From a virus (lineage: Duplodnaviria; Caudoviricetes), in the IMG/VR virus record IMGVR_UViG_3300032305_003086, positions 32,001-96,000 of that record: DNA of 64,000 bases; one strand, 5' to 3'. Of this stretch, positions 31,958 to 54,967 are shown one piece after another; positions within the stretch are counted from its first letter, which is position 1, and each line of letters begins with the position of its first letter. A program made the position numbers and the translations under genes. The notes under the pieces were generated by a model that saw only the letters and a program-made list of their open reading frames with translations, ran no database searches and was not told the DNA's origin.

Positions 31958-32871
31958 TGCCAGCGGCTAGTGGTTCCAACAGTGAGGCTGGTGGGGTTTG
32001 GCGTCTAGATGATGCTGAAGCTCTGAATAGGGCAGGCAGGTGGCCAATTAATTCTTCTTTATTAAGAAATATAACATATTTGGTAGTCGGAGGAGGAGGC
32101 GGTGGTGGAGGAAGTGGTTCGAACGGCGGTGGTGGAGGTGGTGGTGGTGGTTTTATCACAGGAAGCTTTGAAAAGTCACCAGGAGTAATACTATCAATCT
32201 CTATAGGAACAGGAGGTGGTGGGTCTGCTAGTAGTGGATATGGGGCCAACGGAATCAACTCTTCTTTAGATAATATCACAGCAATTGGTGGGGGTGGAGG
32301 GGGTACTTATCTAACAAGTGGTTTAAACGGTAGTAGTGGCGGTGGAGGAGGAAGAGACGGTTCCGGAGGAGGATCTGGTATCTCAGGTCAAGGCTTCTCA
32401 GGAGAAGGCACTGATGCTAGCGGTTGGCGTTCTGGTGGGGGCGGAGGCGGCGCTGGCGGGTCAGGTCTAAGAGGATCTTATGATCAAATAAACTACTCTG
32501 GCACAGGTTCCCAGGGTGGAATAGGTTCAATTTCTTCAATAACAGGATCTGATCAATATTATGGTGGTGGCGGCGCAGGTTCATGGTGGGTAGGTTCTAC
32601 AAAGCCTCAAGGTGGACTTGGCGGTGGTGGAGGCGGTGGCGGTGGTGGGGGAGGAAACAGCTCAGGAAGTCCTGGAACCCCGAATACTGGCGGTGGAGGT
32701 GGAGGTGGGGTAATAGGAGGAAGTGGCGGAAGTGGCATAATTATTTTAGCATATCAAGGCCTTGCACTATCTAGTATAGGCGCTGGACTAGTATACACTT
32801 TGGATACAACATCAAGAAATGGTTTTAATGTTTACAGATTCACATCAGGTAGTGGGAGTATAACAATATAA
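31957..32871 (+). CDS. Gly-rich domain putative virion protein
   Basis: YLVVGGGGGGG...GGSGIII domain, paralogous to the Gly-rich domain of 24115..28662. Confidence 0.75.
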   Translation: MPAASGSNSEAGGVWRLDDAEALNRAGRWPINSSLLRNITYLVVGGGGGGGGSGSNGGGGGGGGGFITGSFEKSPGVILSISIGTGGGGSASSGYGANGINSSLDNITAIGGGGGGTYLTSGLNGSSGGGGGRDGSGGGSGISGQGFSGEGTDASGWRSGGGGGGAGGSGLRGSYDQINYSGTGSQGGIGSISSITGSDQYYGGGGAGSWWVGSTKPQGGLGGGGGGGGGGGGNSSGSPGTPNTGGGGGGGVIGGSGGSGIIILAYQGLALSSIGAGLVYTLDTTSRNGFNVYRFTSGSGSITI

Positions 32872-50773: not shown

Positions 50774-51157
50774 ATGGGCAAAACTAGTAAAGAAATATTA
50801 AATTACAGACATGAATGTGTAGATATCTATAAAATGTCCAAAGGTTGCGAAGAATGTGGATATAATACTCATCCTTACAACTTATGTTTTGACCACCTAC
50901 CCGGTGAAGAAAAGTCAGAACATGTAAAAAATGGATATTCAAAAAGATCAAGTGCAGGCGGAATGTATAGACTTTATGCAAAATCACACTCCATAGAAGA
51001 TTTAGTTGGAGAAATGAAAAAGTGTCGAGTTTTATGCAATCATTGCCATATGAAGCATACTCATGGAATCAATAATAAAAGATGCATAAATAATATTTCT
51101 AAAAAAATATCTTCTATAGAAGATTTAGAAAAAATACTTAGAGAATATGAAAATTAA
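50774..51157 (+). CDS. HNH-like Zn-finger endonuclease
   Basis: CEECG, FDH, KCRVLCNHCH. Confidence 0.75.
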   Translation: MGKTSKEILNYRHECVDIYKMSKGCEECGYNTHPYNLCFDHLPGEEKSEHVKNGYSKRSSAGGMYRLYAKSHSIEDLVGEMKKCRVLCNHCHMKHTHGINNKRCINNISKKISSIEDLEKILREYEN

Positions 51158-51591
51158 TTTACGTCTAATTTTAGATATATGATTTTAGGCGGATTATCGT
51201 AATAAATATTTAGGTAATTGCAAGCCCAAATTTTTTGTCCCGCCTCTGTTTTTATATTTTCAGAAAAAGCATCATATATCCATCCATCAAAAAAATTATT
51301 TTTAAGTTCAAGTCTAATGTCGCAATCTAAAAATTGTTCTTCTGAAAAGTAAAGATAAAGACCGTCTTTTGAATCTAAATTTTTAGACTTACAACCAAAT
51401 TGTATGGCCTTATCCGCTCCAGCAACTAAAGGAGATAAGGAAAATTCTGTTAGTGTAGCAGGTGCTAAAATATATTTTCCCTTGTCATTTTGAAAATACC
51501 AATTTCCTTTTTGGTCTTTATTTATAAAAACTTTGTTGATATCGTTGTTTTCTTTTTTTTCTCCAAATATTGTGTGATTTTTATAACTCAT
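51154..51591 (-). CDS. Hypothetical protein (DUF6717-like)
   Basis: PLVAGAD...L-x-FS...GW-x-Y...WAC-x-x-L-x-x-YY-x-x-PPK-x-IY; start set to ATG 51591. Confidence 0.5.
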   Translation of the reverse strand: MSYKNHTIFGEKKENNDINKVFINKDQKGNWYFQNDKGKYILAPATLTEFSLSPLVAGADKAIQFGCKSKNLDSKDGLYLYFSEEQFLDCDIRLELKNNFFDGWIYDAFSENIKTEAGQKIWACNYLNIYYDNPPKIIYLKLDVN

Positions 51592-52231
51592 CCTTAAATT
51601 CCTTTTTATAAAATTCTTCAACATCAGGAGTTATTGATGGTCTATATAAATCAAAATTAAAATTTGAAATATTCTTTTTTGCAAAATCAGATAAAACTAC
51701 ATAATAAGGAGATATTAATTTATTTGAAACCCATCTTTCAAAATCTTCTTTTTTTATAGAAGATTTATCTTTATTTTTCAAAAATTCTTGAGTCTTTTTT
51801 AATTCAATTTTAATTAATCTTGGACTAGTAACAAGGCCCAAATCAGAAGAGGTTTTTATTTCATTTAATTTTTTATCAAATTTTCTTTTCCATAATTTCC
51901 ATCTTTTCCAAGCTTTATCACCAGTAAGTATTTGAGGTTCAATTAGAGCATGGACTTTTTCATGTTTCATTAATTTTAGCATTTGCAATTGAGCGACAAT
52001 ATAAATATAATATTCTTTATCACTATCTAGTAAGCCTTTTGTTTCTCTGACTAATTTATAGCAATATTTAAAAAGAGTAGTTTTCCTAGGGTCTTTGCTT
52101 TTACTAATTTTAATATGTCTTTCATTTGGAAATTCTTTTTTACATAAATCTTGCCACATTAAACAGATTTTAAAAGCTTTTGCTTCTAAATCTGTCATGT
52201 TATACTTCAAAATTAATTCTAGCTCATTCAT
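51581..52231 (-). CDS. Hypothetical phage protein
   Basis: 216-aa ORF, divergent from the structured intergenic region. Confidence 0.7.
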   Translation of the reverse strand: MNELELILKYNMTDLEAKAFKICLMWQDLCKKEFPNERHIKISKSKDPRKTTLFKYCYKLVRETKGLLDSDKEYYIYIVAQLQMLKLMKHEKVHALIEPQILTGDKAWKRWKLWKRKFDKKLNEIKTSSDLGLVTSPRLIKIELKKTQEFLKNKDKSSIKKEDFERWVSNKLISPYYVVLSDFAKKNISNFNFDLYRPSITPDVEEFYKKEFKDEL

Positions 52232-52329
52232 TGGTGTTGACTATTCTATTCGAAACGATAGAATTAAGCAAACGAAACAACTTTCAAGATACTATTATAT
52301 TTTAACTTTCTAAAACTTTCTAAACGAGT

Positions 52330-52790
52330 AATTTTGATCTCCGTTGTGTTTTCCTGCACCTTGCACGGGCTAATTTATTAGCATAAAATCTCGAAAGAGA
52401 AAAAGGAACAGGATGCGTTTGGCAAACCATAGGGTTAAAAACTCCCCTAGTGTTTCTAAGCAGTAATTAATGAAAGTTAATTACATACCTTTGACGAGGT
52501 ATATCAGGTGCTGTATTACTTTAAACCAAATGAATATTTTCCCGAAAGGGTTTTCCATGTAACCAGACAGTAGTTGATCTGTCATGGGGCGTAGGGTCAT
52601 GGTCAAAACGGAAATAACGTTGAAAAAATATTCAGTATTAAGTTAAAGTGAAGAAACTGAAAAGGTAGAAAAAGATCAAACAAATAGAATTGTCCCTAGA
52701 AGTTCTCTATAAGTGCGGTTCCAATATCTAACTTAAAAAGAATATTTCCTCAGGGATACGCCCCAAGTGCGCCAATAACGTTAATATTAA
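52330..52790 (+). ncRNA. Candidate large structured non-coding RNA, family unrecognised
   Basis: No long ORF. GAAA tetraloop hairpins at 52389-52400, 52463-52484 and 52541-52550; nested long-range helices; 9-bp pairing 52585-52593 with 52757-52765. GNRA loops and G-U pairs favour the + strand. Boundaries are approximate. Confidence 0.65.
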
Positions 52791-52796
52791 TTAATC

Positions 52797-53078
52797 ATGA
52801 AAGAACATAGAAGAAACCTAAAAAGATTAGCTAAAAGATTTTCTATTTCGATTGATGAAGCAATTCAAAAATTTTATAATACACAAACAACAAATAAAAA
52901 TATTATTTATTCTATAAAGAAAAAAAGAAATAAGGGAATTAATTCTGGTTTGGTCAAAAATAAATTAAATAAAGAAGAACTAGAAAAACTCAAAGAAAAG
53001 AAATTAAAATTTATTAGAGATTCGAAGAGAGAATCCAGATTGAAAAATATTGTAAAGCCGAAGACAAAAGTAGATTAA
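52797..53078 (+). CDS. Small Lys/Arg-rich hypothetical protein
   Basis: 93 aa, strongly basic. Confidence 0.55.
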   Translation: MKEHRRNLKRLAKRFSISIDEAIQKFYNTQTTNKNIIYSIKKKRNKGINSGLVKNKLNKEELEKLKEKKLKFIRDSKRESRLKNIVKPKTKVD

Positions 53079-53105: not shown

Positions 53106-54404
53106 ATGTCAGAAATTGCTGAAATATTAGATTCGATACAGAACTCTGACGTATTTTTTCATTTTGAATCTGATTTTGTAGATTGGACTGACGATTCTTC
53201 TGTAGATTTCGCTATTCAATCCAAAGGCCAGAAATCAATAATTTCATTATGTGAGCCAAAACATATTGAAAGTTTGGCAGCAAGTTTATATTTTTATACA
53301 AAAAATTCCAATTTGCTTACTTGGAATCTAAAAAATATCTTATCTTTTTTTAGAAAAAAATCGCAGATCAATGTAAATTTTAGCAATAAAGTTTACGACT
53401 TGAGTGTTCTTTGTTCTTACTTTTCTTTGCCCAAAAAGAAACCTACGACTTCCAAGGAAGCCTTTTTTCTTTTTAATCACATTCGTAAGACTGATAGTTG
53501 GAAGTCTTTTGAAAAGTTTTATGATAAAGTCTATTACCCACTAATATCAAATGTAATTCCTAGCATAGAAACTAATCCATTAGTTGATTTGGCCGAGAAG
53601 AAATTTGTTTATTCTTATTACGAGATTGAAGGACAATCTAATGGTAGAATGAAGAATTTAAAAGTATTAAAAGACTGTTATCTTCCTCATTCAATGGGAG
53701 AAAAGCAAAAGAATATTTTAAGACTGCCAAGTGATGATAGTGTTTTTATGTATTATGATTTCAAACACATGGAAGTTAGTGTTTTAGAATGGATAACTAA
53801 AGATGCAAATTTATCTAAAATACTTGATTCAAATGTAGATTTATATAGGTCTATCTGGCAATCACTAACAAAATCTGAGGCCACTAAAGAGCAAAGAAAA
53901 ATTTGTAAAAACATATTTTTGCCTGTTATTTTCGGTCAAGGTTCAAATTCTTTATCTAAGAGGTTGGGTATAAATGAAAAATTTGCTGAGAAACTAATAT
54001 ATAAATTAGAACAAACCTTTCCTGTTGCTTTTGATTGGGTAAAATCCCAAACAGTCGATAGCAACAATTACGCGACGGACATATTCGGTAGAAGAAGAAA
54101 ATTCCAAAAAGAAGAGTTGTATAAAATTAGAAATTTTTGTATACAATCTCCATCAAATATGATTTGTTTAAGAAAACTTGTAAAACTACATGAATCCATA
54201 AACAATAAAGCAAAAATATTTTTTCATATACACGATGGCTATGCTATTGCTTGTAAAAGAAAAGATTTAAAATTGGTATTTGAACTTGGAAAAAAAGCTT
54301 TAGAAGAAGATGACGATCTGTTTCCAAATCTTAAGCTAAAGACTTCTTGTCATTTCGGTGAACATTTGAATAATTTAAAAAATATTAAAGAGGTTATAAA
54401 ATGA
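53106..54404 (+). CDS. Minimal family A DNA polymerase-like protein
   Basis: NGR, motif A YDFKHMEV, motif B RKICKNIFLPVIFG, FGRRR, NFCIQS, motif C HIHDG; only 432 aa. Confidence 0.85.
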   Translation: MSEIAEILDSIQNSDVFFHFESDFVDWTDDSSVDFAIQSKGQKSIISLCEPKHIESLAASLYFYTKNSNLLTWNLKNILSFFRKKSQINVNFSNKVYDLSVLCSYFSLPKKKPTTSKEAFFLFNHIRKTDSWKSFEKFYDKVYYPLISNVIPSIETNPLVDLAEKKFVYSYYEIEGQSNGRMKNLKVLKDCYLPHSMGEKQKNILRLPSDDSVFMYYDFKHMEVSVLEWITKDANLSKILDSNVDLYRSIWQSLTKSEATKEQRKICKNIFLPVIFGQGSNSLSKRLGINEKFAEKLIYKLEQTFPVAFDWVKSQTVDSNNYATDIFGRRRKFQKEELYKIRNFCIQSPSNMICLRKLVKLHESINNKAKIFFHIHDGYAIACKRKDLKLVFELGKKALEEDDDLFPNLKLKTSCHFGEHLNNLKNIKEVIK

Positions 54405-54967
54405 AAGCTATACAGAACTCGTTTCCAGTTACAGAAGAAGAGTATCTTATTTTAGATAGTAAATTTGGCGAATTGTGTGAGTATCAAGCCTGGCAATTAT
54501 TGAAAAAAAATACAAGGAATAATCATACTGATAGTCAAGAAGATATAGCTCAAGATATGAGAATGGCTTTGCTTAGAGCCGCATCTTATTATAAAAGACA
54601 ATGCTATATCGAAAATGCTTTAGAACTTTGTAGAAAATATGCTAAAGATGAATTTATAAAATCCGTAGTTAAACAGTTATCTAATTTATGGAAAAACAAA
54701 ACTCGTCATGGAGCTAATCGTCAAAAATTTGGGCTGTATCAAGAAAAAATGCTGGACAAACTCATTAAATGTTTAGTTCCTATAAAAGAAAGACCTCATA
54801 AAAAAGCTTCTTTGGTCATGGATACTAAATTTATAACTTATTGTAAAGCTATAACTTGGAATGCTCAAAAAAGCCTTGGCAAGAGAATAACAAGAGAAAA
54901 ATCGATTAGAACAGGAATGGTCTCAATATCAGAATTTGATTATCTAGGCGGTCAAAAAGAACAATGA
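54401..54967 (+). CDS. Phage sigma factor (region 2 only, gp55-like)
   Basis: EDIAQDMRMALLRAA resembles region 2.2; KFITYCKAITWNA resembles region 2.3. Confidence 0.55.
   Translation: MKAIQNSFPVTEEEYLILDSKFGELCEYQAWQLLKKNTRNNHTDSQEDIAQDMRMALLRAASYYKRQCYIENALELCRKYAKDEFIKSVVKQLSNLWKNKTRHGANRQKFGLYQEKMLDKLIKCLVPIKERPHKKASLVMDTKFITYCKAITWNAQKSLGKRITREKSIRTGMVSISEFDYLGGQKEQ

Follow-up and report, generated by a model that had tools for sequence, protein, structure and literature searches.

Comparative sequence analysis identifies positions 52333-52765, on the plus strand of the window (by which we mean the whole 64,000-nt stretch of DNA analyzed here, positions 32,001 to 96,000 of the IMG/VR virus record IMGVR_UViG_3300032305_003086), as the gene for a pseudoknotted structured RNA of about 430 nt. 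The source record is 126.6 kb long and is rated 25% complete by CheckV, and is thus a fragment of a very large phage. An earlier reading of the DNA made from the letters alone (the sequence-only reading) had proposed that a new class of large structured phage noncoding RNA lies here, and this core claim is now supported by conservation, covariation, folding energy and the absence of Rfam matches. We consider it almost certain that the RNA exists and that it represents a previously uncatalogued family. As to its role, we tentatively favor the reading, to which we give a probability of roughly 40%, that the RNA may be the ribonucleoprotein (RNP) partner of the products of the next two genes, a small basic protein and a short family-A DNA polymerase (PolA).

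A conserved noncoding gap

The RNA lies in a gap of 565 nt, bounded on one side by the start of a minus-strand gene (51581-52231) and on the other by the ATG at 52797. As the sequence-only reading had it, this gap is noncoding: it contains no credible open reading frame (ORF) of 30 or more amino acids, whether scanned under genetic code table 11, with TAG=Q or under table 4. A hidden gene written in another code is ruled out by the same three scans, which gave 0 ORFs, and the ORFs called within the gap of some relatives were dismissed as not conserved. The gap is richer in G+C than its surroundings, with values of 0.355-0.385 at 52300-52599 against roughly 0.20-0.30 in the flanks and about 0.29-0.32 for the genome. 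The comparison of folding energy with dinucleotide shuffles that had been proposed as a check comes out in favor of a structured plus strand (-118 kcal/mol against -102.1 +/- 5.5 for the shuffles; z -2.88; 0/100 shuffles as good), and less clearly so for the minus strand (z -1.99).

The 432-aa polymerase encoded downstream of the gap has 107 homologues in metagenomes. A search of IMG/VR for related loci starting from the single protein returned nothing, and an alignment-based search succeeded. Contigs with PolA homologues of 42-81% identity have the same layout throughout, with a gap of 420-670 nt, so that the expectation that the element would be kept upstream of homologous short PolA genes in related phages is borne out. 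The gaps of these relatives align with one another as long near-invariant blocks alternating with variable stretches. About 20 distinct RNA sequences were recovered by iterated nhmmer searches, two covariance models and pattern scans, from genomes that span 29-61% G+C and from contigs of up to 634 kb.

Covariation

MAFFT alignments of these sequences shifted several helices out of register, and we therefore used tests of cognate against non-cognate duplexes together with a covariance-model alignment. In the cognate test the 5′ strand of each member is paired with its own 3′ strand or with the strands of other members, over 5000 permutations. Nine helices (Pa, Pb, Pc, Pd, Pe, Pg, Pi, the pseudoknot and H1) pair better with their own partner than with those of other members, with 0-1 of 5000 permutations as good. 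The covariance-model alignment covers a 143-position core in 19 distinct sequences; 97.7% of its cells are standard pairs, where shuffles give 75.1% and slid partners no more than 43%, and in 16 of the 21 pairs both sides have changed. The core scores 0.642 for covariation against 0.203, and none of 500 shuffles is as high. The same helices were returned independently by RNAalifold from 13 full-length sequences, with 17/40 pairs compensatory, and the fold is preserved throughout the 29-61% G+C range of the genomes that carry it. Covariation, which the sequence-only reading had named as a check, is thus strong in both the cognate tests and the covariance-model alignment.

Architecture of the RNA

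In the predicted architecture, helix H1 closes a multi-branch core in which a long coaxial stack of Pb, Pd and Pe leads to a highly conserved junction of Pg, Ph and Pi. The 3′ tail, about 170 nt further on, pairs with an internal-loop strand of this junction, forming a pseudoknot that is sterically compatible with the nested helices; both the nested helices and the pseudoknot covary. Pc and its variable hairpins branch off the Pb-Pd-Pe stack, inside which sit Pf and the Pg/Ph junction. Six long-range pairings had been read from the single sequence, namely H1 (52333-52340 with 52673-52680), Pb (52452-52457 with 52652-52657), Pd (52517-52524 with 52643-52650), Pe (52531-52540 with 52625-52634), Pg (52555-52559 with 52598-52602) and the pseudoknot (52586-52593 with 52757-52764), and all six proved to be correctly placed and to show compensatory changes in relatives. 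The local hairpins proposed at the same time divide into two groups: those at 52430-52449, 52541-52550 and 52566-52583 are conserved, and those at 52369-52382, 52389-52400, 52463-52484 and 52485-52502 are present in the window as clade-specific or variable insertions. All parts of the RNA are given here in plus-strand coordinates.

The closing helix H1 has a mean cognate pairing energy of -16.4 kcal/mol against -13.9 kcal/mol for permuted partners (1/5000 as good), and is kept with differing sequences (UUUGAUCU/AGAUCAAA, UGUUUGGC/GCCAGACA and CCAAGG/CCUUGG). Behind its 5′ strand lies a subdomain (52342-52427) that contains the first two of the clade-specific hairpins, among others, and is found in the closest relatives only; in locus L009, which lacks it, H1 runs directly into the next hairpin. 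This is Pa (UAGGG/CCCUA, 52430-52449), which carries a near-invariant 10-nt loop, UUAAAAACUC, performs at 0/5000 in the cognate test and shows the compensatory change to UGGGG/CCCCA.

The stack begins with Pb (1/5000), in which GUUUCU/AGAAAC is replaced by CGUCCU/AGGACG, AGUCCU/GGGACU or GUUCC/GGAAC in other members. Branching from it, Pc (AGCA/UGCU, 52459-52512; 0/5000) encloses the two variable hairpins at 52463-52484 and 52485-52502 and occurs in the versions AGCA/UGCU, AGCC/GGCU, AGCU/AGCU and AACG/CGUU. Pd changes on both sides in 7/7 pairs and has a cognate energy of -8.4 kcal/mol against -3.7 kcal/mol for non-cognate strands; the corresponding values for Pe are -7.4 and -3.3 kcal/mol (0/5000). 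Pf (52541-52550) is a hairpin with a GAAA cap that is kept in the family with varying length. Three GAAA loops had been singled out in the single sequence, and the one in Pf (52544-52547) is at the only position that is widely a stable tetraloop, GNRA in most members and UNCG in some, so that the loops are a feature of the family only in part.

The pseudoknotted junction (52555-52602) contains the most conserved blocks of the family, and its pairing is 100% in 19 sequences. It is made up of Pg, Ph (52563-52564 with 52595-52596), Pi (52566-52570 with 52579-52583) and the 8-nt 5′ strand of the pseudoknot (52586-52593). Pg varies from CCAUG/CAUGG to CCGUG/CACGG, CCACG/CGUGG and CCAAC/GUUGG, and Pi from GACAG/CUGUC to GAUAC/GUAUC and GACGC/GCGUC. 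A small hairpin that follows, Pj (AACG/CGUU, 52607-52621), comes from single-sequence folding, with an equivalent in relatives seen by eye only.

Beyond H1, a variable 3′ domain (52681-52746) differs between clades in length and sequence. The RNA then ends (52747-52764) with the small hairpin Pk (52747-52749 with 52754-52756) and the 3′ strand of the pseudoknot, UACGCCCC, at 52757-52764. The pseudoknot occurs as GGGGCGUA/UACGCCCC, GGGCCGUA/UACGGCCC, AGGGUGUA/UACACCCU, GGGGUAUA/UAUACCCC, GGGGCC/GGCCCC and CCGGGCC/GGCCCGG, with a cognate energy of -14.6 kcal/mol versus -10.9 kcal/mol (0/5000). About 95 nt of this 3′ tail are tandemly duplicated in locus L008 (3560-3740), giving two copies of the small hairpin and of the pseudoknot 3′ strand.

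In GC-richer members (L025:3715-3760; L040, L037, L009 and L008) a U run follows the pseudoknot 3′ strand GGCCCC, which can, by eye, alternatively pair with a local GGGG(U) 15-20 nt upstream. Such a pairing would be a terminator-like hairpin in competition with the pseudoknot, and is missing in the window and its closest relatives.

Strand and transcription

A consensus scan places a predicted rightward sigma-70-type promoter, TTGACT-16-TAGAAT, at 52237-52264 on the plus strand, with a predicted transcript start near 52271. An element of the form TTGnnn-16/17-TA(t/c)(g/a)AT occupies the same place, abutting the start of the leftward gene, in every clade. In locus L107 the promoter is a perfect TTGACA-16-TATAAT (12/12) and H1 starts a few bases past the -10 box. 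Facing the rightward promoter is a leftward promoter-like element, TAGAAA-17-TATAAT (52294-52322, minus strand), which would drive the divergent minus-strand gene; GC-richer clades keep an equivalent leftward TTGAAA-17-TATGAT. This face-to-face pair is kept in all clades, with the leftward element inside the 5′ leader of the RNA. The overlapping 5′ ends of the two predicted transcripts suggest that transcriptional interference may occur between them.

The wobble pairs point to the plus strand, which has 68 G-U pairs to the minus strand's 31, and on which the wobble-bearing helices are more stable and the GNRA/UNCG tetraloops read correctly. The G-U excess agrees with the claim that selection acts here on RNA rather than DNA; the GAAA loops are only in part family-wide. 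Covariation alone cannot separate an RNA from single-stranded DNA of the same strand, and the element does lie between divergent genes, so that the pairings might be imagined to form in single-stranded DNA, as at a single-strand origin, or the conserved blocks to be protein-binding sites in a divergent promoter region. We regard such a DNA-level element as extremely improbable. A correctly oriented promoter is conserved directly upstream, the wobble pairs and tetraloops belong to the predicted transcribed strand, binding sites would not yield compensatory changes in nine helices, and nothing in the T4-like replisome context points to single-stranded DNA replication.

Distribution

A degenerate pattern of the core matches once in each known member and nowhere else in the loci examined. 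Since this pattern is found in just 13 stretches of IMG/VR, all of them members of the RNA family, and the conserved core pattern is absent from the 185,579 prokaryote species searched (one genome each), the family, though real, is rare, and its members come only from huge phages in aquatic metagenomes. Exact 19-mer and gapped pattern matches in L012, L013, L017 and L018 were rejected as chance hits in coding or high-GC sequence.

When covariance models R1 and R2 were run on the more distant PolA loci (identity below about 40%), the only member to emerge, even with filters off, was L107 (1165-1545; at about 289 kb of G001:C1, a complete 527-kb phage genome). A scan of five near-complete relatives with R1 likewise matched G001 alone, and a search for relatives of L107 recovered only L107 itself.

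Relationship to known RNAs

Rfam 15 comprises 4227 models, including those for GOLLD, ROOL, HEARO, OLE, raiA, RNase P, tmRNA, SRP, 6S, group I and II introns and riboswitches. None matches anywhere in the 64-kb window at the gathering threshold. At E<=10, the region 52150-52900 gives just three chance matches, all on the minus strand and scoring 15-18 bits against thresholds of 50-88, and nothing matched at the RNA element in eight diverse members. An ARAGORN scan of the window for tRNA and tmRNA found no gene. The sequence-only reading had noted that hallmarks of tRNA, tmRNA, RNase P and introns are missing and had proposed the Rfam search as a check on novelty; both the ARAGORN scan and the Rfam searches agree with it.

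A group I intron was considered separately. Its location speaks against it: the element is flanked on one side by a divergent promoter region and on the other by the start codon of a small ORF that is itself complete, and the upstream neighbor is on the opposite strand, so that no exons join into one frame. The Intron_gpI model has no match at E<=10. The topology of Pg and the pseudoknot loosely recalls P3/P7, but Pg is here enclosed by three further long-range helices, unlike in group I introns. We found no similar DNA from cultured phages by blastn (the 'distant' setting) against 50,697 deposited phage genomes, and no description of the RNA in full-text literature searches.

Genetic context

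The RNA stands in a fixed gene order: a gp59-like gene read leftward, the rightward promoter, the RNA, the small basic protein, the short PolA and a gp55-like gene. In about 19/20 distinct loci it immediately precedes the basic ORF and PolA, on the same strand. The basic protein (52797-53078, plus strand) has 93 residues, of which about 50 make up a conserved core ahead of a Lys/Arg tail. It is modeled by AF2 as helical (pLDDT 79.7), and no PDB structure matched this model in Foldseek at better than E 3.5. Its gene directly follows the RNA in every RNA-bearing locus except L107 and is found in 0 of roughly 45 PolA loci that lack the RNA. In L026 (4001-5524) it is fused in frame to the N-terminus of PolA, giving a protein of 507 aa, and this fusion indicates that the basic protein and PolA would act as one unit.

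The polymerase itself (53106-54404, plus strand) matches Pfam DNA_pol_A at 7.4e-26 over profile positions 133-378 of 381. It covers only the C-terminal two-thirds of the model, and aligns to Klentaq only from just after the thumb. A 188-aa gene (54401-54967, plus strand) always comes after PolA; an atlas match to sigma-70 region 2 clusters, taken as a lead only, makes it a possible gp55-like sigma factor. On the other side, the divergent 216-aa gene (51581-52231, minus strand) is a conserved neighbor that may encode a gp59-like helicase loader, to judge from a weak atlas lead (0.83) to T4 gp59.

The RNA heads a T4-like replication cluster that includes, besides the short PolA, a DnaB-type helicase and gp32-like, RecA/UvsX-like, SbcC/Rad50-like and ribonucleotide reductase genes. 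A stand-alone HNH endonuclease gene (50774-51157) lies between replication-cluster genes; related loci carry HNH genes at other positions, so that these look like mobile insertions. The five near-complete relatives (381-572 kb) have a single short PolA each, and neither a family-B polymerase nor a reverse transcriptase (RT). In four of the five (G001, G002, G004 and G005) Pol III alpha is split into two genes of about 470 aa and about 830-980 aa. Because the relatives carry this split Pol III alpha, it is probably the bulk replicase of the phage, with the short PolA an accessory enzyme.

L107 departs from the common layout. The RNA in this locus keeps every helix and stands alone, separated from PolA by a 292-aa gene on the opposite strand. 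The pseudoknot is followed immediately by a remnant of 5 codons, MRRNK-stop, similar to the beginning of the basic ORF.

Distant PolA homologues that lack this RNA often have an ORF-free gap of their own, of 300-900 nt, directly upstream. In one group (L062:1934-2416, L067:1631-2227 and L091:205-687; also L063-65 and L071) the gap holds a second conserved element of about 480-600 nt that cannot be aligned with the first. The genes immediately behind it encode distant homologues of the same short PolA (30-40% identity), in genomes of 31-54% G+C, and it has no Rfam match and no accompanying small basic ORF. RNAalifold on three sequences marks 23/78 predicted pairs of this element as compensatory. 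Further conserved upstream gaps occur in other PolA clades (L027/L061; L070/L074/L081/L099; L079/L089). There are hints here of a wider, undescribed link between large RNAs and the replication genes of giant phages.

Possible functions of the RNA

The sequence-only reading had offered, as guesses, a ribozyme, an RNP scaffold and a replication-primer RNA. Large structured RNAs immediately upstream of, and co-oriented with, genes for nucleic-acid enzymes have repeatedly proved to be cofactors of those enzymes, as with HEARO/omega RNA and IscB, retron msr-msd and its RT, and the bridge RNA and the IS110 recombinase. The RNA described here has the same fixed, co-oriented upstream position and co-occurs with its enzyme gene. 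It is because of the synteny, the co-occurrence with the basic ORF, the L026 fusion and the precedent of omega RNA, retrons and bridge RNAs that we favor a partnership with the basic protein and the short PolA. The RNA would be made early from the conserved sigma-70-type promoter and would bind the two proteins encoded directly behind it, the small helical basic protein and the minimal family-A polymerase. The resulting RNP would then recruit, prime or regulate the accessory polymerase. At the far end of such ideas, the RNA and the thumb-poor PolA might make up a module for RNA-dependent DNA synthesis in which the basic domain tethers the polymerase and the RNA serves as primer and/or template; we think this very improbable. 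Such a module would resemble a retron or telomerase, but with a Pol I scaffold in the place of the reverse transcriptase, and different clades of the huge phages would supply the same enzyme with different RNAs.

Several observations weigh against a partnership with the two proteins. Many distant PolA homologues lack the RNA, some of them having almost no upstream gap, so the polymerase does not need it in general, and the co-occurrence of RNA and basic ORF could be mere shared descent within one clade. The fold of the basic protein has no RNA-binding match in the Foldseek comparison with the PDB. Lastly, the adjacency of RNA and protein genes is equally expected of an operon leader: no intrinsic terminator was found between the RNA and the basic ORF in the window, and in all members the start codon comes only 11-53 nt after the end of the pseudoknot 3′ strand.

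A cis-acting 5′ leader, or operator, of the basic-protein/PolA operon would be co-transcribed with the two genes and would control translation or read-through, for example by autogenous binding; T4 gp43, gp32 and RegA regulate their own mRNAs. We consider this possible, if somewhat unlikely. Besides sharing the strand of the two genes, the RNA has the position of a 5′ untranslated region directly before the genes to be regulated in about 19/20 loci, L107 being the one in which a gene on the opposite strand intervenes. That other PolA clades have different conserved noncoding elements at this place recalls ribosomal-protein leaders, which differ between phyla, and the U run and terminator-like alternative pairing seen by eye in GC-richer members would also fit a leader; the U run is missing in the window and its close relatives. 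In size and complexity (about 430 nt, at least 10 helices and a long-range pseudoknot) the RNA far exceeds any known phage translational operator, and no cognate-specific pairing was found between its body and the translation-initiation region, 411/5000 permutations being as good. L107 is also difficult to reconcile with a pure leader, as its RNA is complete and lies intact behind a perfect promoter even though the basic ORF is reduced to MRRNK-stop and PolA is uncoupled.

The stand-alone copy in L107 would also fit an RNA that acts in trans on a target unrelated to PolA, whether as a ribozyme, as a self-assembling RNA like GOLLD or ROOL, or as a decoy for a host factor or defense system, its position being accidental. 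Its size, invariant junction and pseudoknot do resemble those of ribozymes and ornate RNAs, and the predicted promoter is of host type, so that transcription is presumably early. Set against this are the very tight synteny with the basic ORF and PolA across 29-61% G+C, the lack of a match in Rfam to any catalogued ribozyme or ornate RNA, and the absence, in the ARAGORN scan, of the tRNA cluster near which GOLLD and ROOL are usually found. We judge a trans-acting role of this kind unlikely.

The place of the RNA at the head of a replication cluster (gp59-like, PolA, DnaB, gp32-like and RecA/UvsX-like) raises the alternative of an origin-of-replication transcript, like ColE1 RNA II or those of T4 origins. 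Such a transcript would form an R-loop and have its 3′ end extended by the neighboring Pol I-like enzyme, after which helicase loader and DnaB would be brought in. At the origins of ColE1, T7 and mitochondria it is family-A polymerases that extend the transcript primers; the RNA is predicted to be promoter-driven and is similar in size to RNA II; and complete relatives have Pol III alpha for bulk synthesis, so that the short PolA could be an initiator polymerase. We nevertheless find an origin transcript quite unlikely. In the complete 527-kb relative, cumulative GC skew reaches no extremum at this locus, and in the record of the window it shows only a small local dip at the RNA; this is a weak test of an origin in these genomes, where skew tracks gene orientation. 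The region has no iterons, notable direct repeats or AT-rich unwinding element and is enriched in G+C. The invariant loops and pseudoknotted junction exceed what a primer needs, and RNA II is not homologous, matching neither in Rfam nor in sequence.

Few bacterial or phage RNA classes above 300 nt are, to our knowledge, still without a known function, mainly OLE, GOLLD, ROOL and raiA. New biochemistry has come, or is expected to come, from each of them. The RNA of the huge phages offers a well-supported secondary structure with a long-range pseudoknot and a small junction, conserved to an extreme degree, that has the look of an active or binding site. Its natural variants over 29-61% G+C are suited to structural work. 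It comes with a fixed set of genetic partners, a small basic protein and a minimal DNA polymerase that are fused in one genome, and it raises the testable question of what ties a large RNA to an accessory Pol I-like enzyme in half-megabase phages. In at least one other clade of this polymerase, the corresponding position is occupied by a conserved structured element of a different kind.

Comparison with known systems

GOLLD and ROOL are RNAs of phages and prophages, several hundred nucleotides long, with many helices and pseudoknots and of unknown function, that were found by comparative genomics (PMC12286853, PMC5737381). The RNA described here is likewise phage-borne, large, rich in helices and pseudoknotted. 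It differs from them in architecture and gives no covariance-model match at E<=10, and whereas GOLLD and ROOL sit by tRNA clusters, in Lactobacillales or rumen elements, it sits by a polymerase gene in huge aquatic phages.

The operators of the T4 family, the targets of gp43, gp32 and RegA, are also RNA structures in the leaders of replication genes and are bound by the encoded protein. These are hairpins or small pseudoknots of 20-40 nt, in contrast to an RNA that is ten times larger and persists detached in L107. ColE1 RNA II is likewise a promoter-driven folded RNA of about 0.5 kb whose partner at the start of replication is a Pol I-type polymerase. The two RNAs show no homology, and the present one has a conserved pseudoknotted junction and invariant loops; we found no element like the antisense RNA I and no origin signature at this locus, and GC skew is unsupportive.

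A partnership with the basic protein and polymerase invites comparison with HEARO/omega RNA, retron msr-msd and the IS110 bridge RNA. The enzymes differ, the gene products here being a family-A DNA polymerase and a small basic protein in place of IscB, an RT or a recombinase, and there is no similarity in sequence or in Rfam; the partnership is suggested in our case by synteny, co-occurrence and one gene fusion. What the systems have in common is a structured RNA immediately 5′ of a co-oriented gene for a nucleic-acid enzyme, a single upstream promoter, and a sequence that diverges fast as the fold is kept.

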